This document shows positions 5,947 to 19,556 of a DNA stretch of 64,000 bases, piece by piece (within the stretch, counting starts at the first letter, position 1; each line of letters starts with the position of its first letter). The DNA is taken from NCBI GenBank assembly GCA_041651455.1, contig JBAZJG010000008.1, forward strand, positions 283 to 64,282. The letters are read 5' to 3'. A program made the translations under genes and the position numbers. Below the pieces are notes generated by a model. It saw only the letters and a list, made by a program, of their open reading frames with translations, was not told the DNA's origin and ran no database searches. The DNA is from Candidatus Omnitrophota bacterium (GTDB taxonomy: Bacteria > Omnitrophota > Gorgyraeia > Pluralincolimonadales > Pluralincolimonadaceae).

Positions 5947-7974
5947 TTATTCGACGATTTTTGAGTAAGATTCCGTCTCAATGGCCTTGTCCGTGAATAC
6001 GGTCCTGGAACCGGCGGCTTTCAGCGATTGCAGGCCGTCAATGACCGGATATACCGCCTTGTCAAGCCATAGCTGGACGAGCGCGGCGTCGAAATCCTTC
6101 TCCGGGCCGCCGCCCTGCCGGCCCCTCATCTGGAACTGGTCGAGCTGTTCCCTGTTCATCTCCAGCATCGACTCCTTCTCCTTGGCTTGCGCCACGAGCT
6201 CGGCCGCAGCTTCCGGCGTGTTGGCCGGGTCATTTATCTTCGCGTTAATGTCGGCCAGCTCTTTCTCGAGCGACTGTATCTCGGTATTCAGCTTATCCGT
6301 CTGCGCGGCCATCATCTCCTTGACCTTTTTCTGCTGTTCGGACATGAACGTGAGCCACCTTACGGCCCAATCGCAGATCCCCTTGCCCTTCTGCAGGATC
6401 GTGTCCACTTTAAGATAGACGACCTTGTTCGCCGGGTCCATAAGGCCGTTGTTGACCGACTTGAAATCCTCATTCTCAAAGAGCGATTTCGCGGCGCCGG
6501 AATACGAGTCCACCGAGCCCTTAATCGGCTCGCGCCCTAGCGAGAACAGGAAATAATCCCCGACGTAGCAGAACGCCGGCTGGAACGCCATGCCGAACGG
6601 CAGGTTCATGTATTTGATATCGACGCCCTTATAGGATTCGGACTGCATGCTCCCGCCCTGCGTGAACTGCGCGAGCATCTTGTCTATAGCTTCTTTCTTG
6701 TCGACCTTCAGGAAGACGACGAACTGCGGCATCGGTATCATCCCGTCAAGGTTTATGTCGGTCAGGCACATGCCCGTCTCGTCTCCGAGCGCCGGGATGA
6801 TGTCGTTCTCTATGCTTATGCCCATCTGTTTCTCGAATCCGGCTATCATGTCGTTGAAGGTCGGGCCCTGGTTCACCTTGGCCGCTTCATTGCCCATCTC
6901 TTCCTTTATGTATTTCCAGTACGCCTTCCATTCAAAGGTATCCCAGCTGTACCATATCGTATTTGCCGGGGCCAGTTTCATCGCCGTGTTCTTGCGCGGC
7001 TTGACCGAATAGAAATCCCTGAAGAACGGTATCAGCTTCGCCTTGTCGAGGGTTAACTGCATCCTCTCCTTGGTTATCTTGCCGGGATATTTCGCGTAGC
7101 TGAACGACTTGAACCCGCCGTAGACGCCGAGCGTCTTGTCGAGCTGGTCCCGGAAGATACGGCCCGGGTCCGGCTGGGCACCGCTTGCTTCCTTGGGCGC
7201 CGGTACGGCGTCCGCGATGTGCTTGATGCCTGCCATCATGAGCCCGATATCGCCGAAGGCGACCGTCTCCGCACCTTTAGGGAACTTCGCCATCGCGTCG
7301 GTATAGTCCTTGTCCTGCGCGAGCGAGAGGAACTTCTTGTCGGCCACGTCGCAGCAGGAGGTAGCCGCCTTCTTGCCCAGGCCTATGACGAGAATATCCT
7401 TTATCTGGACGTAGGCGATGCTGACCTTATCGTCGAGCTTGACGACGGTCAACTTCTTGCCCTTGTAATTCTCCTCCGCGACCTCGTATTTCCTGCCGGC
7501 CTTGTTGAATACCTTCGCGAGGAAATCTATGAATTTCGTCTCGGGCTTCACCCTCGTGGCCAGCGTGACATTCGAAGCCATTTCAATGACACCTGAGGGT
7601 GTCATCTCAACTTTGCCCGACGGGTAAACCGCTACCGCGATCTCCTTGCCGAAATATTTCTCGAGGACGAGCCCGCCTATGAAGCTTGAAAGCTCCGTCC
7701 GGGCGGCCCTGAAGTTCTCGACATCTTCCTTCTTCGCGCCGCTCTTCTCCATGAGCATCTCAATGTCTATCTTCTCGAGGTTCTTATAGAGACGCGAGGC
7801 CTTGAACTCCTTGACCTGCCTGTCCACCTCGGAGAACTTCATGAAAAAGACGGCATCCGCCGGAAGTACGGACTCGACGGGAGTCGGCTTGGACGCAAGC
7901 GTGAAAAGGACGGCCGCGGCAACCGCGACGGCCGCAACGGATATGGCTGTAATTATAATAGCGGATTTCTTCAT
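5947..7974 (-). CDS. Large N-terminally membrane-anchored extracytoplasmic protein with a C-terminal coiled coil (family not confidently recognised; native-GC copy of a paralog pair)
   Basis: 675 aa. It has an N-terminal TM segment (MKKSAIIITAISVAAVAVAAAVLF), a long globular region, and a C-terminal heptad-rich segment (LEKELADINAKIN...). About 58% GC. It is clearly paralogous to 10116..12125 (shared blocks SRLYKN, KEIAVAVYPSG, IPALGDE, LPFGMAFQPAFCYVGD, VRWLTF). Confidence 0.8.
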   Translation of the reverse strand: MKKSAIIITAISVAAVAVAAAVLFTLASKPTPVESVLPADAVFFMKFSEVDRQVKEFKASRLYKNLEKIDIEMLMEKSGAKKEDVENFRAARTELSSFIGGLVLEKYFGKEIAVAVYPSGKVEMTPSGVIEMASNVTLATRVKPETKFIDFLAKVFNKAGRKYEVAEENYKGKKLTVVKLDDKVSIAYVQIKDILVIGLGKKAATSCCDVADKKFLSLAQDKDYTDAMAKFPKGAETVAFGDIGLMMAGIKHIADAVPAPKEASGAQPDPGRIFRDQLDKTLGVYGGFKSFSYAKYPGKITKERMQLTLDKAKLIPFFRDFYSVKPRKNTAMKLAPANTIWYSWDTFEWKAYWKYIKEEMGNEAAKVNQGPTFNDMIAGFEKQMGISIENDIIPALGDETGMCLTDINLDGMIPMPQFVVFLKVDKKEAIDKMLAQFTQGGSMQSESYKGVDIKYMNLPFGMAFQPAFCYVGDYFLFSLGREPIKGSVDSYSGAAKSLFENEDFKSVNNGLMDPANKVVYLKVDTILQKGKGICDWAVRWLTFMSEQQKKVKEMMAAQTDKLNTEIQSLEKELADINAKINDPANTPEAAAELVAQAKEKESMLEMNREQLDQFQMRGRQGGGPEKDFDAALVQLWLDKAVYPVIDGLQSLKAAGSRTVFTDKAIETESYSKIVE

Positions 7975-8028
7975 GGGACTCTCCTTGGGTTAATTAAGAG
8001 GCATTATACCACAACTTTAGGGGAGTTT

Positions 8029-8292
8029 CTACGCCCATTCTGAGGCATATCTGTCAACAAGGTCTCTAATCATCCTCTGGTATTTCGTGTGATGCCTGTT
8101 TGCCTCACGCTTGAAAAATTCTATGCTAGATTTTTTCAGCGCGATTGTTATCTTCTGCGTCTCTTCCGACTTAGCAAGCTCAACCGGTGGCGGAAGAAGA
8201 TCCTTTATTCTCTTTAATCCGCCCACGGGCATGTCCGAAACATCAGTCCTCTTTTTCATAGTACGCTTTGCCCTTTCTCCAATAACCGGCAC
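8029..8292 (-). CDS. brnA: BrnA antitoxin (ribbon-helix-helix, type II toxin-antitoxin)
   Basis: 87-aa ORF. Its C-terminal half, QKITIALKKSSIEFFKREANRHHTKYQRMIRDLVDRYASEW, matches the BrnA pattern (ITIRLD..vl.wFK..A...G.gYQT.IN.iLR.y). It overlaps the upstream brnT 3' end by about 50 nt, so the true start may be the internal Met (MKKRTD or MPVGG). Confidence 0.75.
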   Translation of the reverse strand: MPVIGERAKRTMKKRTDVSDMPVGGLKRIKDLLPPPVELAKSEETQKITIALKKSSIEFFKREANRHHTKYQRMIRDLVDRYASEWA

Positions 8293-8527
8293 CGATTATC
8301 CTTATCATCCCCTGCCGGTATGTAAACCTTACTGTCATTACTTTATTCCCGGCCTTTCCGATACAGAAAAACCTTTCCTCATGCTCCGAATGGCCGGAAT
8401 CAACGTATATCTTTCTTTTTGTATCAAGGAAAGCTCGCGAGGCAATCTTAAAATCTACCCCGTGCTTCCTTATATTTTCCCTTTCTTTCGATTCGTCCCA
8501 GGTGAACATACCTGTGATTTTATCCAT
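8243..8527 (-). CDS. brnT: BrnT toxin (DUF497 ribonuclease, type II toxin-antitoxin)
   Basis: 94 aa: FTWDESKERENIRKHGVDFKIASRAFLD...DSGHSEHEERFFCIGKAGNKVMTVRFTYRQGMIRIIGAGYWRKGKAYYEK. This is the canonical BrnT/DUF497 signature (F.WD..K...N..KHGV.F.EA..vF.D......D..HS..EeR....G.......vvyt.R.....RIISAR.A...E...Y). The toxin-first gene order matches BrnTA. Confidence 0.8.
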   Translation of the reverse strand: MDKITGMFTWDESKERENIRKHGVDFKIASRAFLDTKRKIYVDSGHSEHEERFFCIGKAGNKVMTVRFTYRQGMIRIIGAGYWRKGKAYYEKED

Positions 8528-8531
8528 GTTT

Positions 8532-8560
8532 AGTATATCCTTTGGTCCTCATATTGTCAA
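8532..8560 (-). promoter_or_regulatory. Sigma70-like promoter directly upstream of brnT (-35 TTGACA 8560..8555, 17-nt spacer, -10 TATACT 8537..8532)
   Basis: The minus strand reads TTGACAatatgaggaccaaaggaTATACTaaacATG. The -10 ends 4 nt before the brnT ATG, which would give a leaderless or near-leaderless mRNA. The AAGGA inside the spacer could alternatively be the SD for a promoter lying further upstream in the AT-rich stretch 8560-8600. Confidence 0.4.
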
Positions 8561-8600
8561 TATTTATATACATACTATTATACATTATATTGGGCATAAT

Positions 8601-8642
8601 AAATCCCTCCTTTACCTATATAGACGGCATGAGGAGGGATTT
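8601..8642. repeat. Perfect 10-bp inverted repeat AAATCCCTCC (22-nt spacer) GGAGGGATTT between the stop of the 297-aa gene and the brnTA promoter
   Basis: Read directly: aaatccctcc tttacctatatagacggcatga ggagggattt, then tctttc. It could be a terminator hairpin for the upstream operon, or an operator for BrnA (RHH antitoxins bind palindromes). Confidence 0.6.
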
Positions 8643-8657
8643 TCTTTCAAATATTGC

Positions 8658-9533
8658 TTAAGGCGTATTATTAGTTTCGGTAATGCAAGTAAACTTGATT
8701 GGTAACGGGGCCGATTCAACTTCGAATCTTTTTCCTTTATATTTGCCTGATATTATGACAACTAAATCGTGCCTCTCTCCCGCTTTAACAAAATCGGAGA
8801 GTGGCTTGCATGGCCAGACGGAAGAATGCCTGTAATCCCAATCTAAGGAAAGGTCGTATGTGAATTCCTGCTCTTCGTTTGTCAGGGTAATACCTAATGG
8901 CACCGAGCGCCTGTGCGGACTGCTCCAAATCCTTTCCATATAAAAAAAGATGCTAACATCTTCTAATTCAACCGGTTCGCGGCTGCCCGTAGACAATAGC
9001 ACGCTGATCGGGATAGGGCCGAAAGGTGAGCATCTTTTGTTCTCTGTCTCAATACTCATGACGATGAAATCTTTTGGGACAATTGTCAAAAAAACCGTTT
9101 GCGACTTTATCCTGATCTTGTCATTGACCTCATATATTGCGGCAATGGAATAATCCCCCTTCCTGCTGAAATCATAGTAGCCCGATACTCTAATTGAAGT
9201 ATGAAATGTTCCTGATGGCGGGAAGCCTGGTTTTCTAATCAACTGTAATAAATCGCCATCGGGACCTTTAATTTTAAGATTCTCCACCAGTCCTTCTTTT
9301 TGGCAGGATATCTCGGATATTATATTTTTGTCCAATCCTTCAACCGGTTCAATATGAAATGCGAGTTCTATTGGTTCTCCTACATTGAATATCTCTTTCT
9401 GCAATTCAAGCCTGCAATGTAATCCGCCCGAAGAGATACCCCATTCTTCAGCAAAACATGTCATAAATATAAAATTGGCGGCGAATACCGATATTATCAA
9501 TAAATACTTCGTGTAATCCTTTTTAGGAGCCAT
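8658..9533 (-). CDS. Secreted hypothetical protein encoded directly after the PEP-CTERM protein gene
   Basis: The ORF is 8658..9551. The likely start is MAPKKDYTKYLLIISVFAANFIFMTCFA (signal peptide, possible lipobox) at 9533, 7 nt after the PEP-CTERM gene stop. About 40% GC. No recognisable domain. Confidence 0.55.
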   Translation of the reverse strand: MAPKKDYTKYLLIISVFAANFIFMTCFAEEWGISSGGLHCRLELQKEIFNVGEPIELAFHIEPVEGLDKNIISEISCQKEGLVENLKIKGPDGDLLQLIRKPGFPPSGTFHTSIRVSGYYDFSRKGDYSIAAIYEVNDKIRIKSQTVFLTIVPKDFIVMSIETENKRCSPFGPIPISVLLSTGSREPVELEDVSIFFYMERIWSSPHRRSVPLGITLTNEEQEFTYDLSLDWDYRHSSVWPCKPLSDFVKAGERHDLVVIISGKYKGKRFEVESAPLPIKFTCITETNNTP

Positions 9534-10116
9534 GGTTTTTCCTAAAACCAAGCAGCGGGAGGCCGGCGAGAATCAGTATAATGGTCGAGGGCTCGGGGAT
9601 AGGTGAAACCAGCAATTGGGCACTATGCCCCTCATTGTATTCCAGTGAGGAGAATATATCCGTTTTCGCATATTCGGAACGAATATTGAACCCGACAAAT
9701 GGGGTTGAAACTCCCTGCATAAAACTAGTAACTTCAAATAATGCGTCTTCGCCGTATCCAAGATCTTCCGGCAAAATAAGAACACCTAAATAATTCCCTG
9801 CATCATAATCAGATGATGTCAGCTGCCCGTCGCTGCTTCCATAGCCGTATATTTGAACGGTTTTACTCCAAAGAGGTAATCCGTATGGGTTGACAGACAA
9901 ATACGCTGTGCTTATTGGCCATAAAATCTGGCTGGTTGGGAATTCCACTACACCTCTTGTGGGTTCGCATGCCGTAAGATAGCAGTTGGTCAACACGCCC
10001 CCATCTAGGTACACTGAACCGTCATCGGAAGGATTGATGACTAACGCAGAAGCTGAAGCAACCTGAGTCATAGCCACGATAAATACGGCCATAATGCCGA
10101 ATTCGATCTTGTTCAT
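9523..10116 (-). CDS. PEP-CTERM sorting-domain protein (exosortase substrate)
   Basis: The C-terminus VSPIPEPSTIILILAGLPLLGFRKNHGS is a PEP motif, hydrophobic helix and basic cluster, which defines PEP-CTERM. The N-terminal signal peptide is MNKIEFGIMAVFIVAMTQVASASA. The ATG at 10116 overlaps the TAA stop of the upstream paralog by 1 nt (TAATG); the track start at 10140 is a TTG. Confidence 0.75.
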   Translation of the reverse strand: MNKIEFGIMAVFIVAMTQVASASALVINPSDDGSVYLDGGVLTNCYLTACEPTRGVVEFPTSQILWPISTAYLSVNPYGLPLWSKTVQIYGYGSSDGQLTSSDYDAGNYLGVLILPEDLGYGEDALFEVTSFMQGVSTPFVGFNIRSEYAKTDIFSSLEYNEGHSAQLLVSPIPEPSTIILILAGLPLLGFRKNHGS

Positions 10117-12125
10117 TATTTGAAAAAGGTCTCTGTACAAATCACGTTCTCCGTGAAGACTGTCTTTGAACTTGAGACATTATTCGAAGAAAGGCCTTCC
10201 ATGATAGGATAGGCCGCCTTTTCCACCCAAAGCCTTATCAAGGGCACATCCATATCCTGTCTCGTTACCGCGACACGATGTTTCTCCTGCTCTTCCAAGT
10301 GGGCCAACTGCTCTTTGTCGATCTTCAACATGGAATTCTTGTCCCATATCTTTAAATCGAGTTCAGATTTTACCTCTGCCAAAACAGCGGGGTCGGCACG
10401 CTGCGCTTTCATATCTGCCAGCTCCTTTTCCAGTTCCTTGATGCCTGCCCTTAACCTGTCCATCTGGAGCAATATCATCTCTTCGTATTTCTTCTGTTTT
10501 TCGTAGTACGCCTTGTTCTCTTCGGAAATATACGTAAGCCACCTCAGACCCCAATCGCAAAAATCCCTGGCTTCCCGCAACAAAGCATCGGTATCCACAA
10601 AACGAACCTGGTTTGCCGGCTTGTCGGGGTTGCTACTAACAAGCCTGAAATCCTCGCTGTCAAGAAGCGACTTCGCGGATCCGGAACAAGAATCTATGGA
10701 ATTCTTTAATGGCATGCGGCCCAAAGAGAGCAAAAGATTATCTCCAACGTAACAATATGCCGGTTGGAACGCGAGGCCGAATGGGAGGTCCAGGTATTTT
10801 ATCTCAACATTATTGTACGTCTCCGTTTTCACGGCCTCCTCCCCTTCGATGTCACTCCGGAAGAATTTGCCCAAAACCAGGTCTATCGCCTGTTTGTCGT
10901 TTACTTTGACTATATAGATGAACTGCGGTGATGGTATAAGGCCGTCGTAATTCACGTCTATCAGGCACAAGGCCCCTTCATCCCCGAGAGCGGGTATCAG
11001 GTCATTCTCTATGCTGAAGTCCACCCAACTCTCGAACTCGGCAACGATATCGTCAAATCCGTGGGACTCAACCCCTTCCGGCGTTCCTTTTATCATGGCT
11101 TCCTTCAGGTACTGCCAGTATGCCCTCCACGCGACCGTATCCCATCCGTACCATATCGCATTAGGCGGGATGAACTTAAGCGTATTGTTCCCGCGCGGGG
11201 CCACTGAATAGCTTTCCCGGAGGAACGGGATCATCTTGGATCTGTCGATTTTTACGGTCATAACGCTCTTTTTTATCTCCCCGGGATATCTGGCGTAGAA
11301 GAAGGTCCCGAAACCGCCGTATTCGCCCAGGCGCAGGCCCATATTTTCCTTGAACGCTTTTAATATATCCGCTGATATCCCTTTCCCGGCCGGTTCCGGG
11401 ATGGCGGTTACGGCATTTTTCAATCCTTCCGCTATTCTCCCGATATCACCGAAAGCGGCCATCTCGGCGCCTTTCTCAAGCCCTGACACCGCCCCAATGA
11501 AATCCTTGTCCTGCGCCAACGCGGGAATTTTCCTGCCGGCGGCATCATAGCAGGACATGACAACCATCTTATCCGTGCCCGCCACCATCACATCCTTGAT
11601 CCGGACCATAAACACGCTCGTCCTGTCCCCTATCTTCACGACGGATATCTTCCTGCCGCTGCAGTCCTCTTCTTTCTCCTCAAATATCTTTCCCGGTTTT
11701 TTGAACATAATGGCAAACAGGTCGGCTATTTTTGATTCCGGTTTCACCTTCGCGGCGAATAATACGCCCGAAGGATACACGGCAACGGCTATCTCCTTCC
11801 CGAAATACTTCTCAAAAGGAAGCCCGTCGATAAAACCCGATATGTCCGCTTTCCATACTCCTACAGCTTGCGCCTGTTCCTTCTTAGCTCCGCTCTTTTC
11901 AAGCAGCATTCCTATATCGATGGCTTCCACATTCTTATAGAGCCTCGATGACCTAAACTCCTCGAATTGCCTGTCGGCATCGAACAATTTCACGAAGAAG
12001 ACCGGGCCGGCAGGCAGCGCGGACTCGATCGCCTGCGGTTTTGCGATATAACCGACATAAATGCCGGCCGCCGTCGCCGCAATGGCAATAAAAATGACTG
12101 TGACTGCTATAAACGGTTTTTTCAT
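10116..12125 (-). CDS. Large membrane-anchored coiled-coil protein, lower-GC xenologous paralog of 5947..7974
   Basis: 669 aa with the same architecture (N-terminal TM, shared motif blocks, C-terminal coiled coil ELEKELADMKAQ...). About 48-50% GC versus about 58% for the other copy. Its start overlaps the TPR gene stop (ATGA at 12122-12125). Confidence 0.8.
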   Translation of the reverse strand: MKKPFIAVTVIFIAIAATAAGIYVGYIAKPQAIESALPAGPVFFVKLFDADRQFEEFRSSRLYKNVEAIDIGMLLEKSGAKKEQAQAVGVWKADISGFIDGLPFEKYFGKEIAVAVYPSGVLFAAKVKPESKIADLFAIMFKKPGKIFEEKEEDCSGRKISVVKIGDRTSVFMVRIKDVMVAGTDKMVVMSCYDAAGRKIPALAQDKDFIGAVSGLEKGAEMAAFGDIGRIAEGLKNAVTAIPEPAGKGISADILKAFKENMGLRLGEYGGFGTFFYARYPGEIKKSVMTVKIDRSKMIPFLRESYSVAPRGNNTLKFIPPNAIWYGWDTVAWRAYWQYLKEAMIKGTPEGVESHGFDDIVAEFESWVDFSIENDLIPALGDEGALCLIDVNYDGLIPSPQFIYIVKVNDKQAIDLVLGKFFRSDIEGEEAVKTETYNNVEIKYLDLPFGLAFQPAYCYVGDNLLLSLGRMPLKNSIDSCSGSAKSLLDSEDFRLVSSNPDKPANQVRFVDTDALLREARDFCDWGLRWLTYISEENKAYYEKQKKYEEMILLQMDRLRAGIKELEKELADMKAQRADPAVLAEVKSELDLKIWDKNSMLKIDKEQLAHLEEQEKHRVAVTRQDMDVPLIRLWVEKAAYPIMEGLSSNNVSSSKTVFTENVICTETFFK

Positions 12126-13165
12126 GGGGTTGGCCTTTTTTTAGGGATCTGCAGTACATTATCTTTGTTCTCTTCCGCCTTCCTGAAATACATATCCGCT
12201 TTCTCGCGGTCGCCTTTTTCCGCGTATATCTCCCCGAGATACTGGTAAACCTCATACGATATAGAATTAAGACCGACGGCCGTTTCCAGGTACTCCCTCG
12301 CGCTCTCCTTGTCTCCGAGCCTGTAAGCGGTAATGCCGAGATTGTCCCATGTGTCTACGCCATACGGGTTATATATAACTGACATCGTGAAATCGCTCAA
12401 TGCCTGCTTGTAATTGCCTTGGCAAAAATACGTGAACCCGCGGTTATTCATGCCTTTATAGCTGAATGGATCTATAACAAGCGCCCGGTTATAATCCCTG
12501 ACAGCCTTATCAAACTCGCCCATATCCAGATATACCCCGGCACGGGCATAATATCCGCTAAACTCTTTCGGTCTCAGTTTTATTAACTCGCTAAAATCCT
12601 TGACGGCTTTTTCATATTCGCCCGCTTCCGAATAAGATATCCCGCGATTCCATAGCGTATTCGCGCTTACCGGGTCAGCGCTCAATGCCTCATTATAGCT
12701 TTCTATTGCAGAATTATACTCGCCTACATCGGTCATGGCGTTGCCCAGGTTATTATACGGAAGTTTGAAATTCGGGTTCATTTCGACCGCTTTTTGGAAG
12801 TCCGCAATAGCTTTTTCATTCTCCCCTTTTTGCCTGTACGCGCAACCGCGGTTATAATAGAGGTTCGGATTCCTGGAATTTGCCTCAAGGCCTTTTGAGT
12901 ATTCGGCAATGGCCTTGTCGTAATCACCCATTTTTATATACGCGTTCCCTGCCATTTTATAGGCATCATAGAACATGGGGTTTACCTCTATGGCCTTATC
13001 GAACTCCTTGATAGCTTCTTCATACCGGTGTTTGTTGAGATGGACGACGCCGCGGTTGAAATACTGGTTTGCGGTAAGTTTTTCTTCCCTTACTTCTTCA
13101 GCAAGGCAGCTTGAGGAGAGAATACATGCTGTTACGTAGAAAAGTAAAACCTTTGAAAGTTTCAT
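12122..13165 (-). CDS. Secreted tetratricopeptide-repeat (TPR) protein
   Basis: 347 aa. Signal peptide MKLSKVLLFYVTACILSSSCLA, then about eight 34-aa TPR units (recurring AxxxYxxAIxxxP / NxG.AY patterns). Confidence 0.85.
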   Translation of the reverse strand: MKLSKVLLFYVTACILSSSCLAEEVREEKLTANQYFNRGVVHLNKHRYEEAIKEFDKAIEVNPMFYDAYKMAGNAYIKMGDYDKAIAEYSKGLEANSRNPNLYYNRGCAYRQKGENEKAIADFQKAVEMNPNFKLPYNNLGNAMTDVGEYNSAIESYNEALSADPVSANTLWNRGISYSEAGEYEKAVKDFSELIKLRPKEFSGYYARAGVYLDMGEFDKAVRDYNRALVIDPFSYKGMNNRGFTYFCQGNYKQALSDFTMSVIYNPYGVDTWDNLGITAYRLGDKESAREYLETAVGLNSISYEVYQYLGEIYAEKGDREKADMYFRKAEENKDNVLQIPKKRPTP

Positions 13166-13205
13166 TTCGCACCTCGAAACGTTTTTAATTCTTTTCTAAT
13201 TAATA

Positions 13206-13244
13206 GGGACGCATGACCTGGGACGCCCCGTTATGACCTGTCCC
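13206..13244. promoter_or_regulatory. Direct-repeat element in the TPR operon upstream region: GGGACGC-ATGACCTG ... GGACGCC-ccgtt-ATGACCTG-TCCC (ATGACCTG copies at 13213 and 13233, 20-bp spacing; GGGAC/GTCCC inverted ends)
   Basis: Read directly from the 146-bp gap between the hydrolase stop and the TPR gene start. The two-helical-turn spacing suggests a dimeric or tandem DNA-binding regulator site. A 12-bp perfect palindrome AACGGAACCGTT follows at 13273-13284. Confidence 0.35.
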
Positions 13245-13311
13245 TTTTATCGCATCCCATATTTCTTATAAAAACGGAACCGTTGGCACTATTAGCAGTT
13301 TCATTTTCGCA

Positions 13312-14238
13312 TCACAAAAGTTCCCTGGCCGCATTAAGGGTATCGTCGCCGTAAGCCATGTGGTAGAAATGCCCCTGCCCCTGTATGGGGGTGAGCTTCG
13401 CGTTCGGGACGGTCTTCGAAAGCCACTCGCTGAACATCAGGGGGACCCAGCGGTCCTCCGTGCCGTGGCGTATATCGACGCGCATCTTTATCTTGCTGAG
13501 GTCGAAGCCCCATTCAAGGTAGATAACCTGCGCGTCGTATGACGGCCCTTTGGCCCCATTCCTGAACAATTCCTGGAAATCCCTCATCAGGATATTGGCC
13601 ATTTCGGGCATTAGGAACAGGTCCATGTCGGGCTTGCACATGCTAGAGCCCATCATCTTTACGAACGCCTGGGGGTTCTTCATCGTCTTCATTTGTAATC
13701 CTATAAGGGAGAACGGTATCTGGAAGAGCCACAGCGGGAGTTTCGCGCCGATCTTCGCGTAGAAACGGTCCATCGTCCCGAGCTTCTTGAGCGCCTCGGG
13801 GTCCCTGTAGAGAGGCACCGCGCCCGCAAGGTCAACGGCGAACAAAAGCCGGTCCGGAATGGAGTATGCGCATGCCAATACCGTAGGGCCGCCGCCGGAT
13901 ATCCCCATGACGCCGAACTTGCCGATGCCTAGATGGTCCGCAAGCGCAGCGATGTCCGCGGCTCCGTCGAGTATCTTCCTGCCGGGCAGGAAATCCGACT
14001 GCCCCACTCCGGGACGGTCGGGCACTATAATGCGGAAATTCTTCCTCTTTGCCGCGTGATGAAGCAGCATTACGTGGATATGCGAGCCGGTCCCGTGGGC
14101 AAATATTATCGGCGTCCCGGACGGATCGCCGTATTCGTAATACGCCAGGCGGCGCCCGCCGTCAAACGCAAGGAATTTTACTTTCGCCTGAAGCTCCTCT
14201 ATCTCTTCCTGGCTGATCAAGTCGGGCTTGTCGGGCAT
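13312..14238 (-). CDS. Alpha/beta-fold hydrolase
   Basis: 308 aa. Nucleophile elbow GISGGG (G-x-S-x-G), HGTGS oxyanion region and a C-terminal His. A strong SD (GGAGG) lies upstream at about 14245-14249. Confidence 0.8.
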   Translation of the reverse strand: MPDKPDLISQEEIEELQAKVKFLAFDGGRRLAYYEYGDPSGTPIIFAHGTGSHIHVMLLHHAAKRKNFRIIVPDRPGVGQSDFLPGRKILDGAADIAALADHLGIGKFGVMGISGGGPTVLACAYSIPDRLLFAVDLAGAVPLYRDPEALKKLGTMDRFYAKIGAKLPLWLFQIPFSLIGLQMKTMKNPQAFVKMMGSSMCKPDMDLFLMPEMANILMRDFQELFRNGAKGPSYDAQVIYLEWGFDLSKIKMRVDIRHGTEDRWVPLMFSEWLSKTVPNAKLTPIQGQGHFYHMAYGDDTLNAARELL

Positions 14239-14250
14239 AATTCCTCCTGA

Positions 14251-14799
14251 TTAAAATACGCTCTCCAGACAAAAACACGTCAATTCCTCTTCTTTGCCCC
14301 ATTCCACACAGGTAGGTTTGTTCCTGCACTCGGGGCATAGCAGGGTAATGTCGTCCTTATTAATATCAAGTGTACCACGCGTCTGGTGAAGGTCAAATAG
14401 CAATTTCAGGTACTTGCCGGCCACGAGGCGATGCAGGCTGTCCTTCTTCTTGAGCCCTAACCATTGGAAGACGCCCCGGTCGTTGCGTGAAGTATTGCAG
14501 GTAGGACACGACAGAACCGAATTATCCGCCGAATCGGGGCCGCCTCGGCTTCGTGGGATGAGGTGATCGACTTGTAGGCCTTCGAGCGCGCCGCAAAAGA
14601 CGCACTCCTTATCCAACTCCTGCTCCCTCTGCCACTCCCTTATCGTGCCGGACATCGTAGCGCTGCCGTCGCGCAGGGCCTTGAACCGGTCCGTGACAAA
14701 TCCGTAGTTGATGTTGCCCTTGAACGCGCTACGGGATATAAGCTTGGCGTATTCGTAGAGGATTTCTTCTTTTATGGTTTTGACGTAGGGTGGGGGCAT
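14251..14799 (-). CDS. HNH endonuclease with extra Cys-rich zinc-ribbon segments
   Basis: 182 aa. HNH core: CVFCG...QVDHLIPRSRGGPDSADNSVLSCPTCNTSRNDRG. A second Cys cluster follows (CPECRNKPTC...CFC). The roughly 70-aa N-terminus is unassigned. It sits at the edge of the low-GC defence-like block. Confidence 0.7.
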   Translation of the reverse strand: MPPPYVKTIKEEILYEYAKLISRSAFKGNINYGFVTDRFKALRDGSATMSGTIREWQREQELDKECVFCGALEGLQVDHLIPRSRGGPDSADNSVLSCPTCNTSRNDRGVFQWLGLKKKDSLHRLVAGKYLKLLFDLHQTRGTLDINKDDITLLCPECRNKPTCVEWGKEEELTCFCLESVF

Positions 14800-14870
14800 A
14801 GTATTGAGTTAGTTAATAATTTAAATATGTTGTCGCTAAATTTATTTCGATCTGTTCTTCCTCATTTCTA

Positions 14871-16565
14871 TTAGATTTTATACTTTTCGCTACATTGCTT
14901 AACTAATTTGTTCGATTTCGATAATTCGTTATCACTTAAATCTAATTTAAGGGAATCTATTATTTTGATTATACTCACTATTGCTTTGTTGAATTTTTTA
15001 TTTGAATTGATTATTTTTAAGCAATTTTGACAATATTCTTCGGCTTTCTTGCTTTCAAACGGAGGACATTTTTCTTTCATAATTTCATAGCGCAGCATCA
15101 TTAGGATAAAATATCTCAGCTTCTTGAACTTCCTATCTAGCTGCCCACGTCTGAATAGTTTATCTATGTTATATAACGCATAGGCGGACGTGTAGTACGG
15201 TAACATATAGTGATTATCTTTAAAGAGGTCGGGACCGAATTCAGAAAATAAGGTTCCAAAATATCTTGTTGCCATATCTGGTTTGTCAAAATAAAAACTG
15301 GCCATAGTCTTTATTTGGGTTGTTTTATCAATTATTCGTTTCTTCTCTACTCCTTTACTATTATATTGTTTAGAACGCCTTTCATAATAAAGCCTTTGCT
15401 TTTCTGGAAAAGTAGTATAATAGTCTTCCAAGCTTTTTTGAAAGTCTGAAAATGCTATCAAATCTTGTTCTTTTATTTCAGTTTGTCTGTTTGTAGACCG
15501 AATTACTTTAGATGTTAAATCTTTATTGTTTGTGGATATTAATTTTAGGGGCAATTTTACTTTTGGTGACACTAATGATCTGTTTTCAAACAATACATGA
15601 GATGTTTGGCAACCATTAATTATTTGGTAGCTGCTTATGGTAAATCTATCTCTTGTGGTTAGCATTGATTCAGCAACTATCGTTATACCATTGTTCAAAA
15701 CAACAAAGGCTTCTTTATCTTTTGTTTTTAAAGTATTTTGAATTTCCAAATTGACCTTATTGTCTCCCTGAAAATCTCTTACATTATCATAAAATACATT
15801 GGGAATTAAATCGCCGTTATCATCTGTCATTAATTTAATTATTGTTTCGGCCTCGATAATTCCCAAATAAGATTCTGCCACTCCAGTTATTACCGGCAGT
15901 GTAACTCTATTCGGGAATTCGAAAGCTTTTGTAACCGCCTGACCTATTTTTTTGTAAATGCTCTGTATCTCCCTAGCGTCGACAAGGCTTATTATAGTAT
16001 TAGAAAACAAGTTCTCATTTTCGATATTACTTTTCATCTCTTCTGTCTTAGCTTCGATATTATCATCTTCTGTCTTCACACCAAGAGTCACATAATATAG
16101 ATGGCATATTGGTTTCTCCTTAAGCAAATTCGAATTATCTATCAATTTGTTAAATAGCCTGATCTTTGAACGGGCTATTTTAGGCCATTTTATTTTAGGA
16201 TTTTCACTAACAAAATCTGAAACGGCCCAACCAAAGTTTCCAATTTCTTTTGTTTCGAAGCTTTTAGAGGTCTTAGATTGAATAAAAACAACCTCTGCGT
16301 GAACATCTCTATGCGATTTCAAGAAGTCTTCCAGCATATCTTGAGTTTCAATAACTTGTCTATTCAATATCAAAGCAAAGCCATCTAAGCCCAGAGCATC
16401 GTCTTTTCCTATATTTAATTCCTCGATATCGAACCGTTCTTCAGTCTTATTTTCAAGTAATGCAAAATTTACAAAATGCTCAAATTGCGTAGACTCATTT
16501 TTTTCATTTTCCAGCCCATTCGATGATAAAAATTCATTAAGATAACTTCTGGTAATTCTATCCAT
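14871..16565 (-). CDS. AIPR-like abortive-infection (phage resistance) family protein (family assignment tentative)
   Basis: 564 aa with no Walker motifs. The central block VVLNNGITIVAE ... YQIINGCQT resembles the conserved NG.QT core of the AIPR family; this is my recollection and no search was run. It is very AT-rich (about 33% GC) and has a strong SD (GGAGGAAAAC) before the ATG. Confidence 0.5.
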   Translation of the reverse strand: MDRITRSYLNEFLSSNGLENEKNESTQFEHFVNFALLENKTEERFDIEELNIGKDDALGLDGFALILNRQVIETQDMLEDFLKSHRDVHAEVVFIQSKTSKSFETKEIGNFGWAVSDFVSENPKIKWPKIARSKIRLFNKLIDNSNLLKEKPICHLYYVTLGVKTEDDNIEAKTEEMKSNIENENLFSNTIISLVDAREIQSIYKKIGQAVTKAFEFPNRVTLPVITGVAESYLGIIEAETIIKLMTDDNGDLIPNVFYDNVRDFQGDNKVNLEIQNTLKTKDKEAFVVLNNGITIVAESMLTTRDRFTISSYQIINGCQTSHVLFENRSLVSPKVKLPLKLISTNNKDLTSKVIRSTNRQTEIKEQDLIAFSDFQKSLEDYYTTFPEKQRLYYERRSKQYNSKGVEKKRIIDKTTQIKTMASFYFDKPDMATRYFGTLFSEFGPDLFKDNHYMLPYYTSAYALYNIDKLFRRGQLDRKFKKLRYFILMMLRYEIMKEKCPPFESKKAEEYCQNCLKIINSNKKFNKAIVSIIKIIDSLKLDLSDNELSKSNKLVKQCSEKYKI

Positions 16566-16651
16566 GTTTTCCTCCAGTTATATTTTGCTTTTAGTGACTC
16601 ATGACTTTAGAACGCTTCACTATAGAACTTGCCTCTTTTGACACGTCTCGT

Positions 16652-16879
16652 TTATTCTTTCTTTTTTGACCTCACGATCCTTATATCCCCTTTTAAATCT
16701 TTAACTTCATAACTTTCCGAAAGCAATAATCTTAATTTATTGGAATTGTAGGTTTTACTCCAAAAGGGTCTATCAAAATGCACTTCACCTCGCGCTGAAC
16801 CGGCATGGTGAATATGGAGAATCCTTCCTTTTTCAGATAAAAGAGATAAATACCTTTTACAATATTTAATTTTTATCAT
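16652..16879 (-). CDS. Small hypothetical protein (75 aa) between the AIPR-like gene and the 2-TM protein gene
   Basis: The ORF MIKIKYCKRYLSLLSEKGRILHIHHAGSARGEVHFDRPFW... has His-rich and basic character and low GC. It could be a small nucleic-acid-binding partner or a gene remnant. No confident homology. Confidence 0.3.
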   Translation of the reverse strand: MIKIKYCKRYLSLLSEKGRILHIHHAGSARGEVHFDRPFWSKTYNSNKLRLLLSESYEVKDLKGDIRIVRSKKKE

Positions 16880-16954
16880 CGTTCTCGCCTAGCCCATTTT
16901 ACCGTTTGTTTAAGTGGCAGAATCCAAGTACAATTAATCCATTTATTAGAATAT

Positions 16955-17731
16955 TTAACTAATACCGAATTCCTTTTTAAGACCATTAAAATCGTATATC
17001 TGTATATTTACTATCATATCTTTTCCTAATAGAAATTGATCAATTCTATTTTTTAATATTTCCTTTTCTTCATCATTAATCGGCGTTACGATTATAAGAT
17101 AAAAGAATAAATCTCTCTCGCTTTTTTCTAGGTTTCTCCATATATCCTCAAAATACTTTAAAGTTTTTCCTAGCCCATTAAATGGCGTATTTAATCTTGG
17201 AAAGTACTTTACTTCAAATACTGAGAACTGCAAGCTTGAATTTATTATGCCATCAGCGTAATATTTATTGCCTTTAAGTTCAAAACTTCTTTGTTTAAGA
17301 AACATATCTCCATAATCGCTTTCTAACTTTTTAAGAGCTAACTCTTCAGCAAGAAAATATTCAACTTTCGGATTTAATATTATACTTGCAGTAGCACTAC
17401 TTGTTTTATCTTCGGTAATATCTGAAACATCTTTATCCTTTTTATCTATTACATCTTTTATAGTTAAAGGTTTAACATTTTTTATCAAACCAGAAAATGC
17501 TTCATCTGTCTTAAAATCTGAAGGTGCGTATAGCACATGGTGTTTAAGGATTAATACTGAAAAAAACAGCATAACAAGCAAAACAGGGAATATCATGACA
17601 AACCAAACAAACAAATTTTGTATATTATCCGGAAGAATAGGCAATACGGCGCTTCCGCAAATCTCTGATATGCCGGCAAAGATTGCGATAATTGTTAAAG
17701 GATTTTTTATAGTATTTTTGGGTAAGTACAT
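16955..17731 (-). CDS. Membrane protein with two N-terminal TM helices and a cytoplasmic domain of about 170 aa (unrecognised; effector-like)
   Basis: 258 aa. TM1 is LTIIAIFAGISEICGSAVLPIL and TM2 is FVWFVMIFPVLLVMLFFSVLIL, followed by a charged soluble domain. About 30% GC, an SD (GAGGTG) upstream, and a TTGACA hexamer about 45 nt upstream. Confidence 0.6.
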   Translation of the reverse strand: MYLPKNTIKNPLTIIAIFAGISEICGSAVLPILPDNIQNLFVWFVMIFPVLLVMLFFSVLILKHHVLYAPSDFKTDEAFSGLIKNVKPLTIKDVIDKKDKDVSDITEDKTSSATASIILNPKVEYFLAEELALKKLESDYGDMFLKQRSFELKGNKYYADGIINSSLQFSVFEVKYFPRLNTPFNGLGKTLKYFEDIWRNLEKSERDLFFYLIIVTPINDEEKEILKNRIDQFLLGKDMIVNIQIYDFNGLKKEFGIS

Positions 17732-17831
17732 AATCGCACCTCAATCATCTAAAGCTAATTTACATTGCACTTCTGTCAAACTGTTAATGTACGAGGGGCG
17801 CAGTCAATATTTTCTGCTTAAGATTATTTTG

Positions 17832-19556
17832 CTATGCTTGCGATGACAATAATTCCTCAACTTCTCCTATTGTTTCGTCTATCTTGATTACTTTAATTTC
17901 TTTCGTCTTGCGGTCCTTGATCTCCACCTCGCCGGTGGCGATGCGTTTTTCACCAATGATTATTTGTATCGGGAAGCCGATGAGGTCGGAATCTTTGAAC
18001 TTAACGCCGGCGCGTTCGGGGCGGTCATCGAGGATGCATTCTATACCGGCGGAAGTCAGCTCGTTGTAAATCTTTTCGGCCGCTTCCATAGATGCCTGGT
18101 GCGCAGTGTTGAGCGGGAGTATTGCGACTGTGTAAGGCGCTATGGTCTTGTTCCAGATAATGCCGTCCTTGTCGTGGCTCTGCTCGATGAGCGAGGCGAC
18201 GATACGGTTGACGCCTATGCCATAGCAACCCATGATGCACGGCTTTTCCTTGCCGTTCTCGTCGAGGAAATTACATTTTAGCTTGGTGGAATATTTGGTG
18301 CCGAGTTTGAAGACCTGCCCTACCTCGATGCCGTGCTTGAAGAGCAGTTTCTTGCCGCCGTGCGTGTCGCCTTCGACGGCGTTGCGGATGTCTGTCACTA
18401 TAATATTAGCGCCCGTGAGGGGGAAATCCCTTCCCGGCACGACGTTCTTCGTGTGGTAGTCGGTCTTGTTGGCACCGGTAACACCTATCGCCATCGCGGC
18501 TACGGCGTGGTCTATTATAATCTTCGAGGCCTTCCCGGCAAGCCCTACAGGCCCTGCAAAGCCGACCTTGGCGCCCGTGATTTTCTCGATCGCTTCCGGT
18601 GAGGCGAGCTCATTATGCGCGCCGCCGAGCGCCTGTGTCAGTTTCTCGGGGTTGAGGTCGTGGTCGCCGCGCACAAGCGCCACGACGATATCCTTTCCGA
18701 CCGAGAATATGAGCGTCTTTATCATCTCCTTCGGCTTCGACTTCAGGAACGAGCAGACCGCTTCGATAGAACCGACGTTCGGAGTATGCACATCCTCGGC
18801 CTTCGGGGCGTTGGCAACAGCCGGCTCTTTCGGCAGCGGGTCTACCGCGGCCTTTTCGAGGTTCGCGGCGTAGCTGTTATCTTCTGTGTAGACAATGATG
18901 TCCTCGCCGGAGTCGCAGGGAGCCGTGAACTGGTGCGAACCCGAGCCGCCCATCTCGCCCGACTCGGCCTCCACTATCACGAAATCGAGCCCGCAGCGCG
19001 TGAATATGCGCTTGTAGGTCTCGTACATGTTCCAGTATTCCTTGTCGAGGCACTCGGCCGTCGGGTGGAAACTGTAAGAATCCTTCATTATGAATTCGCG
19101 GCTGCGCAGGACACCGAAGCGCGGGCGGAACTCGTCGCGGAACTTGAAAGATATCTGGTAGAGGTTGACCGGGAGCTGCTTATACGACTTGATCTCGCCT
19201 GCGGCGACACTCGTTATTACCTCCTCTGCCGTCGGAGCGATGACGTTCGTATGCCCGTGGCGGTCCTTGAATTTTGCCATCGTCTCGCCGTAATCCCTAT
19301 CTCGGCCGGTCTGCTGCCAGAGCTCTATCGGCTGGACCGCAGGAAGCATGACCTCGAGTGCGCCCGCCTTGTCCATCTCCTCGCGGATGATCGCCTCGAC
19401 CTTATTTATGACGCGCATACCGAGAGGCAAATATGAATACGAGCCTGTCGCGAGCTTGCGTATGAGCCCCGCGCGGATCATTAGCTTGTGGCTTAGGATC
19501 TCGGCTTCCGCCGGGTCCTCTTTAAGCGTCGATATAAGCGTCTTTGTCCATCTCAT
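17832..19556 (-). CDS. proS: Proline--tRNA ligase (bacterial type with INS/editing domain)
   Basis: 574 aa. N-terminus TKTLISTLKEDPAEAEILSHKLMIRAGLIRKLATGSYSYLPLG, class II motifs and a C-terminal anticodon-binding domain. Confidence 0.95.
   Translation of the reverse strand: MRWTKTLISTLKEDPAEAEILSHKLMIRAGLIRKLATGSYSYLPLGMRVINKVEAIIREEMDKAGALEVMLPAVQPIELWQQTGRDRDYGETMAKFKDRHGHTNVIAPTAEEVITSVAAGEIKSYKQLPVNLYQISFKFRDEFRPRFGVLRSREFIMKDSYSFHPTAECLDKEYWNMYETYKRIFTRCGLDFVIVEAESGEMGGSGSHQFTAPCDSGEDIIVYTEDNSYAANLEKAAVDPLPKEPAVANAPKAEDVHTPNVGSIEAVCSFLKSKPKEMIKTLIFSVGKDIVVALVRGDHDLNPEKLTQALGGAHNELASPEAIEKITGAKVGFAGPVGLAGKASKIIIDHAVAAMAIGVTGANKTDYHTKNVVPGRDFPLTGANIIVTDIRNAVEGDTHGGKKLLFKHGIEVGQVFKLGTKYSTKLKCNFLDENGKEKPCIMGCYGIGVNRIVASLIEQSHDKDGIIWNKTIAPYTVAILPLNTAHQASMEAAEKIYNELTSAGIECILDDRPERAGVKFKDSDLIGFPIQIIIGEKRIATGEVEIKDRKTKEIKVIKIDETIGEVEELLSSQA

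Follow-up and report, generated by a model that had tools for sequence, protein, structure and literature searches.

The AT-rich island between proS and an HNH endonuclease gene in an uncultivated Omnitrophota bacterium is probably a mosaic, in which a foreign low-GC segment of about 3 kb occupies a defence hotspot and carries three genes that spread independently of one another. The island is located in a window of 64,000 nucleotides, which is the whole stretch of DNA analysed. Its genes encode a protein of 564 amino acids (aa) from the abortive-infection family AbiU, a 75-aa product designated orf75 and a 258-aa protein with two transmembrane (2-TM) helices. The original prediction had tentatively joined these three genes and the adjoining HNH gene into one AT-rich, unnamed defence system. 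The four open reading frames (ORFs) are co-directional and lie exactly where it had placed them, all on the minus strand. The locus is also defence-related. The single system, on the other hand, does not hold: AbiU is named and stands alone, and the HNH gene is host-like and occurs without AbiU.

The components are not found together elsewhere. The loci of 2-TM homologues that were searched by tblastn, up to 10 kb on each side, number 92 (80 reference genomes, one per species, and 12 contigs), and none contains a homologue of AbiU, orf75 or HNH. The other components are likewise missing from five AbiU loci and from two orf75 loci. Conservation of the four-gene neighbourhood, which had been put forward as a check on the module, is thus not observed. 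The genes directly downstream of the 2-TM homologues have no relationship among themselves or with orf75. In the five AbiU loci, which hold the closest homologues on longer contigs (59-75% identity), DNA similarity is confined to the AbiU gene and the neighbours differ, including HEPN/NTase, YhcG, restriction-modification (R-M) and FokI-like genes; the 75%-identical AbiU of locus L093 also has other neighbours than those seen here.

A low-GC segment between proS and a resident HNH gene

The segment at 14800-17831 has a guanine plus cytosine (GC) content of 31.7% against 55.6% in the remaining window (z = -8.2 relative to the other 3-kb windows). The GC at third codon positions (GC3) is 0.24, 0.28 and 0.30 in the three island genes and 0.67-0.79 in the flanking genes, with values of 0.67 for HNH, 0.73 for proS and 0.76 for the gene of an alpha/beta hydrolase. 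The strong compositional anomaly of the original prediction is therefore retained for three genes and not for four, since the HNH gene has a GC content of 53.4%; the GC of proS, given there as about 58%, is 55.8%. The four ORFs are bordered by proS (17832-19556) and by the hydrolase gene (13312-14238), and the housekeeping flank on one side consists of proS, ispG and rseP. The low-GC tract begins about 45 nucleotides (nt) inside the 3' end of proS, with the GC dropping to 0.34 over 17830-17909, and ends in the 71-nt spacer that precedes the HNH start codon.

The island is wedged between these loci with no integrase, as had been noted. The adjacent ORFs scanned include no integrase or recombinase, phage or conjugation genes, no tRNA was detected in the window and no direct or inverted repeats were found bordering the island, which consequently is not inside a recognisable prophage or integrative and conjugative element (ICE). 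A search of RNA families in Rfam (for example, a ToxI-like antitoxin RNA) gave no family match and no meaningful tandem repeats were found. Terminator prediction returned none between the island genes, nor among the four ORFs.

The same slot can be followed in a sister Omnitrophota genome (loci L098 and L099), in which proS is 87% identical in amino acids and 81% in nucleotides, and HNH 92% and 90%, respectively. Homology with L099 is lost about 45 nt ahead of the proS stop codon. It returns 6 nt upstream of the HNH start codon and extends as far as the HNH stop codon. HNH is present in L099 and AbiU is absent. The slot (L099 1822-2980; also L098 902-2099) contains DUF5343 and HEPN_Swt1 genes instead of the AbiU cargo, and these genes match the PADLOC candidate system PDC-M34A (E = 2.4e-70) and PDC-M34B (E = 5.6e-63). 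Next to them are two small ORFs (63 and 76 aa), and the alternative cargo of L099 contains no mobility genes. The presence of different defence cargo in the same slot of two lineages marks the slot as a defence hotspot with exchanged cargo. The last 13 codons or so of proS are low in GC and non-homologous to the sister. Apparently the 3' end of proS comes with the respective cargo, which places the recombination junction inside proS. The slot thus resembles the core-gene-flanked defence hotspots, which are likewise bounded by conserved genes (here proS and HNH), hold different cargo in relatives and have no dedicated integrase. It departs from them in that one boundary gene is an unusually conserved HNH endonuclease, and the comparison covers two lineages.

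The presence of an HNH endonuclease is confirmed by its motif (Pfam E = 5e-13). The family to which the protein belongs has about 650 members, nearly all of exactly 182 aa and 68-92% identical across distant phyla. Its GC follows each host, between phyla the synonymous and third codon positions show saturation, and the family is absent from the phage, plasmid and viral collections, save for distant matches to the HNH core. For these reasons the option that HNH is mobile cargo was rejected. By its composition HNH is a resident host gene outside the AT-rich cargo, and no functional tie to AbiU is seen. Elsewhere the gene stands beside Shedu, methyltransferase and SIR2 genes (L104) or beside the trp operon and a uracil-DNA glycosylase (UDG) gene (L100). 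When the window is compared with L099, the HNH ORF alone is conserved, at a nucleotide identity above that of proS, with variable DNA on both sides. It is a secondary possibility that the hyper-conserved HNH marks or maintains such hotspots. The positions of all features are collected in Table 1.

Table 1. Positions of the features in the window and of HNH homologues in other loci
Feature	Position	Strand	Basis or remark
Zinc-finger HNH endonuclease, 182 aa	14251-14799	-	resident, host composition; edge of the slot, outside the AT-rich cargo
Low-GC (31.7%) horizontally acquired cargo segment	14800-17831	.	composition; variable slot from proS to HNH
AbiU (AbiU1/AIPR family), 564 aa, intact	14871-16565	-	PADLOC, Pfam and phrog matches
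AbiU residues 258-534, AIPR (ParB/DUF262-like) domain	14964-15794	-	NNG and NGCQT blocks
AbiU residues ~1-250, FokI/MspJI-like PD-(D/E)xK nuclease domain	15816-16565	-	D61, Q96-x-K98
orf75, 75 aa	16652-16879	-	rare, probably a real small-protein gene
2-TM protein, 258 aa, membrane-tethered, PD-(D/E)xK nuclease-like	16955-17731	-	uncharacterised family; no conserved partner gene
2-TM protein residues 121-258, predicted cytoplasmic PD-(D/E)xK nuclease domain	16958-17371	-	E129, D160, E173-x-K175
2-TM protein residues 8-72, 2-TM hairpin and VLYAPSD motif	17516-17710	-	conservation
proS 3' tail, last ~13 codons, low-GC	17832-17875	-	upstream junction of the variable segment
HNH homologues	L099 3027-3575; L100 and L104 6001-6549		182-aa HNH family

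A second and milder low-GC stretch (41-50% GC; window 8000-13200) is located downstream of the hydrolase gene. It contains the genes of a tetratricopeptide repeat (TPR) protein (12122-13165) and of a 669-aa protein (10116-12125), together with two ORFs that have no family match (8658-9551 and 9523-10140). Of these, the 669-aa protein is a paralogue (46% identical) of a DUF3352 protein; the true orthologue of the latter, with 73% identity, is found at 5947-7974. Consequently, the region downstream of HNH also differs from the sister genome.

AbiU and orf75

The assignment of the 564-aa protein to the AIPR abortive-infection proteins, as made in the original prediction, is upheld by several profiles. 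Pfam AIPR (PF10592) covers residues 258-534 (E = 1.2e-41; 143.8 bits against a cut-off of 25), the PADLOC model PDLC02357 for AbiU aligns residues 2-562 with profile positions 3-534 of 537 (E = 3.6e-125) and phrog_1841, described as "Abi alpha-like", matches with E = 1.3e-77. The proposed PADLOC scan thus detects AbiU, and the name given by NCBI is already "AIPR family protein". Going by sequence, the protein is a full-length AbiU, an already-known and named single-gene abortive-infection system.

AbiU1/AIPR/COG1479, which has a ParB-like domain and is often placed near R-M systems, is an established family of abortive-infection proteins (PMC3632139, PMC3506569). A prevalence of about 4% among RefSeq bacterial genomes is reported for AbiU, together with an unresolved mechanism (bioRxiv 10.64898/2026.09.15.751803). 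AbiU-1 was assigned to the PD-(D/E)xK superfamily (PMC13099982), and according to the work cited therein lactococcal AbiU-1 blocks phage transcription and phage resistance by abortive infection is known only for lactococcal AbiU1. The protein of the island shares with AbiU1 of Lactococcus lactis (PF10592/COG1479; "AbiU" in PADLOC and DefenseFinder) an end-to-end match to the hidden Markov model and the NNG and NGxQT blocks. It is also a stand-alone gene amid other defence genes, and its N-terminal PD-(D/E)xK nuclease domain agrees with the superfamily placement of AbiU-1 (PMC13099982). On the other hand, it is only about 26% identical to the lactococcal plasmid copies, its host is an uncultivated Omnitrophota bacterium, and an HEPN-type AbiU2 partner was not identified, the adjacent ORFs having no HEPN family match. 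A sequence search of the PDB returned no solved AIPR structure.

The activity of AbiU, like that of the other island proteins, is a prediction. The AIPR domain would sense or bind nucleic acid associated with the infection and then license the FokI-like nuclease. Once licensed, the nuclease would block phage gene expression, at a cost paid by the infected cell. Such a mechanism would agree with the block of phage transcription attributed to lactococcal AbiU-1 in the work cited in PMC13099982.

The orf75 sequence has four matches among 1.84 billion representatives, three of which are small proteins with 58-72% identity. The homologues preserve the invariant blocks RYLSL, RILHIHH, GSAxGExHxD, FW and DIRI, which could form a metal-binding site. 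No family match was obtained in the Pfam, PADLOC, NCBIfam and phrog searches. The two homologue loci recovered (L153 917-1165 and L154 7977-8228) have contexts unrelated to one another and neither contains an AbiU or a 2-TM gene. Taken together, orf75 is probably a rare but real small-protein gene. Its origin as a remnant of the genes of about 150-175 aa located downstream of 2-TM homologues was considered and rejected, since those genes show no relationship among themselves, with orf75 or with the island DNA. A link between L153 (1,597 bp) and the equal-sized contig of the 87%-identical 2-TM homologue was also discarded as a coincidence, as L153 has no 2-TM gene.

The 2-TM protein and its family

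The 258-aa protein is a membrane-tethered protein with a PD-(D/E)xK nuclease fold and belongs to an unannotated family; its nuclease activity is predicted. No match was found in Pfam or NCBIfam, nor with any PADLOC model at E <= 0.1, and each of its homologues (at least 650) is labelled hypothetical. The two TM helices of the original prediction stand, whereas its effector of unknown family gives way to the nuclease fold. The hydrophobic N-terminal helices are predicted at residues 11-32 and 35-62, and the distribution of lysine and arginine residues indicates a predicted N-in, C-in topology. The TM region is matched by phrog_26238 (E = 1.7e-27). A variable linker separates the hairpin from the C-terminal domain, which has the alpha-beta-beta-beta-alpha-beta core of the restriction-endonuclease-like fold. 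The catalytic residues are placed in helix alpha1 (H121-143; E129), strand beta2 (E155-164; D160) and strand beta3 (E169-176; E173 and K175), and their conservation in 94 family members is 88%, 98%, 95% and 76% for E129, D160, E173 and K175, respectively. A viral Foldseek search gave weak generic endonuclease matches only.

The mean pairwise identity in the family is 65% for the N-terminal 65 residues and 23% for the C-terminal domain. Residues N10, E23, Q38, L67, Y68, P70 and D72 are invariant in all 94 members, with the invariant glutamate of the module inside TM1, and the VLYAPSD motif is likewise invariant. The same TM module is joined to another C-terminal domain in 32 of the 92 loci, including winged helix-turn-helix (wHTH)-like domains in Paenibacillus and Cohnella, TPR domains and others. 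As the TM module is kept while the C-terminal domains are swapped, it forms the family's invariant core. A third recurrent C-terminal domain, with the motif ...AIW(I/L)G.N......YP.L.YI.(I/L)S......I(F/Y)IGG(A/S)T, is observed in Bacteroidota, Patescibacteria and several viral contigs (L070, L074, L131 and L139-L144).

In the proposed mechanism, the 2-TM hairpin would hold the PD-(D/E)xK domain, whose catalytic residues are intact, at the cytoplasmic face of the membrane. The protein would then act as a stand-alone, membrane-confined nuclease, cleaving the DNA of phages or plasmids where it enters, and the anchor would keep the nuclease away from the host chromosome. Either docking onto a conserved membrane structure or assembly into one is the probable role of the conserved TM module, and the 258-aa gene may on its own constitute a defence gene. 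A broader proposal is put forward tentatively: the family would comprise widespread, unnamed single-gene immune proteins, in which a conserved 2-TM core (65% identity across phyla) docks onto or forms a membrane structure and carries interchangeable DNA-targeting heads in the cytoplasm, among them the PD-(D/E)xK nuclease and the wHTH-like domain. The functional core would in that case be the TM module instead of the nuclease, perhaps as a sensor of phage genome entry or as a conditional pore. This would be the opposite of SNIPE and Shield, in which it is the anchor that varies.

Two membrane-bound defence nucleases offer a comparison. Shield ShdA combines a TM segment with an RmuC nuclease, is sufficient alone and is toxic without its anchor (PMC10270631). 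SNIPE combines a TM segment with DUF4041 and GIY-YIG domains and cleaves lambda DNA during injection (PMC13190303). As in ShdA, the 258-aa protein has an N-terminal membrane anchor and a predicted cytoplasmic domain of restriction-endonuclease fold, and is encoded by a single gene that needs no conserved partner and stands among defence genes. Unlike ShdA, it has no RmuC domain (no Pfam match even at E <= 1 in the protein and 36 family members), is much smaller and has a 2-TM hairpin instead of a single N-terminal TM helix; moreover, the TM module and not the nuclease is the conserved and family-defining part. With SNIPE it would share a nuclease confined to the inner membrane, a cytoplasmic catalytic domain and the separation of self from non-self by location. 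In contrast, it has neither DUF4041 nor GIY-YIG in Pfam searches, and its nuclease is of the PD-(D/E)xK type. SNIPE's N-terminal region is its least conserved part, whereas that of the 258-aa protein is the most conserved (65% against 23%). This inverse pattern points to a specific role of the TM hairpin, either in docking to a conserved membrane machine or in oligomerising. By these domain searches the 258-aa protein is thus placed outside the Shield and SNIPE families. The nuclease domains of Can2/Card1, Cap4, HamA, Shedu SduA and XisH-like proteins also differ from it, with a sequence identity of only 7-16%, and the 258-aa protein lacks a CARF/SAVED sensor, a helicase partner and DUF4263.

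The genomic contexts of the family are diverse. In a Pfam and PADLOC scan, 144 immediate neighbours of 2-TM genes belong to 117 different Pfam families, none of which is dominant. The association with defence is suggestive, a qualitative picture for which no enrichment statistic is claimed. One member follows TIR, M78/DUF4411 and type I restriction subunit genes (L012), and in Marasmitruncus massiliensis (L061) another is placed directly between BrxC (6377-9952) and PglX (10548-14204) of a BREX system. The BREX-embedded member has 194 aa and a wHTH-like C-terminus (about 9992-10576). Other homologues adjoin IS21 or resolvase/NikA genes, and 47 viral or prophage contigs carry members near terminase, tail, methyltransferase, ParB and repressor genes.

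In L001 a member is located among Mrr, NucS, PIN/MazE, HEPN and PemK genes, with a tyrosine recombinase adjoining. This contig (ERZ21873832 ctg9775c, 16.8 kb) holds the 48%-identical homologue within an array of single genes that are widely spaced and all run in one direction (NucS_C, Mrr_cat, DUF2971, MazE/PIN, SLFN_AlbA_2, HEPN, DUF7000, MazE/PemK and acetyltransferase), and the recombinase runs the opposite way. Its gene arrangement resembles that of an integron-type cassette array, here made up of defence and toxin-antitoxin genes. In Kangiella the 2-TM gene is at the edge of an island with AbiEi, once next to Gabija-like genes. An identical block is present in L002, L003 and L004 (8001-16500) and comprises the 2-TM gene, a gene of 174 aa, AbiEi_3, cREC_REC and, on the minus strand, four genes, one of them for an AAA_22 ATPase. 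It has three different left flanks, one of which is a Gabija-like pair of OLD-TOPRIM and UvrD genes. The identical block with three left flanks indicates that the island, at whose edge the 2-TM gene lies, is mobile.

Competing explanations and significance

Several observations weigh against the mosaic of independently spreading genes. The three island genes have the same strand and equal GC, are 71-100 nt apart and have no predicted terminator between them, and may consequently be co-transcribed and may have arrived together. Their closest relatives (2-TM 87%, AbiU 75% on a 1.8-kb contig and orf75 72%) have no readable neighbourhood, so a recent shared three-gene ancestor is possible. The hotspot comparison draws on one sister lineage (L098 and L099). 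For the 2-TM family, a defence context is the minority pattern, since many neighbours are housekeeping or metabolic genes (a qualitative count without background control), and PD-(D/E)xK folds also act as non-catalytic DNA binders. The first two points would suit a recent functional trio of AT-rich genes, or a toxin-antitoxin-like pair of the 2-TM and orf75 genes, limited to a narrow lineage. Shared GC3 and the position of orf75, where other family members have a downstream gene of about 150-175 aa, add to this case. Such a trio or pair is nevertheless improbable: the downstream genes are related neither to each other nor to orf75, the orf75 homologues stand without a 2-TM gene, the 2-TM gene stands without orf75 in the 92 genomic and metagenomic loci (the 47 viral loci were not searched for orf75) and the closely related AbiU of L093 has other neighbours. 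An integrated system of all four genes, in which AbiU would be the sensor and both the nuclease and the membrane protein would be effectors, is hardly tenable. The close, co-directional spacing without terminators and the reported linkage of AIPR genes to restriction nucleases (PMC3632139, PMC3506569) would be in line with it, but the composition of HNH is host-like and the gene is kept in L099, where AbiU is missing, AbiU itself is recognised as a single-gene system in complete form and co-occurrence is nil in the 92 2-TM, 5 AbiU and 2 orf75 loci.

The mosaic reading of the locus is also to be set against an origin from a decayed prophage, ICE or integron cassette array with ordinary cargo. 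The foreign composition of the island, the cassette-like array beside a tyrosine recombinase in L001 and the homologues beside IS21 or resolvase/NikA genes would fit such a remnant. Yet the island itself presents no integrase, tRNA, att-like or attC-like repeats or phage structural genes, it is flanked by housekeeping genes (on one side proS, ispG and rseP) and the cargo of L099 is equally free of mobility genes, which makes this origin very improbable. A different question is whether the 258-aa protein serves immunity at all. It is possible, if doubtful, that it is a selfish or addictive element, a prophage accessory for phage DNA transactions or a membrane-anchored DNA-binding regulator that hitch-hikes beside AbiU in a hotspot of recombination. 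Most of the immediate neighbours in the family are not defence genes, 32 of the 92 loci join the TM module to a domain that is no nuclease (wHTH-like, TPR or other), and prophage members are found near terminase, tail and ParB genes. The conserved catalytic residues argue in the other direction, as do the member inside BREX and others near R-M, TIR, Abi and toxin-antitoxin genes, the defence cargo held by the slot in both genomes and the precedent of membrane-bound defence nucleases (PMC10270631, PMC13190303).

Under the mosaic reading, the headline gene of the locus, AbiU, is already recognised by the standard defence finders and by NCBI, and the proposed four-gene system does not exist. The elements of wider interest are only two, the 2-TM nuclease family and the hyper-conserved HNH. 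For an uncultivated phylum, the slot between proS and HNH is a clean case of defence cargo being exchanged without an integrase. The 258-aa gene gives entry to a large, unannotated family of membrane-tethered nuclease-fold proteins that spans phyla and is found in prophages, defence islands and a BREX locus. SNIPE and Shield recently showed that membrane-confined nucleases separate self from non-self by location. If the immune role proposed for the 2-TM family is true, a third and structurally unrelated family, one whose TM module is strongly conserved, would probe the generality of this location principle and the target recognised by the membrane part.

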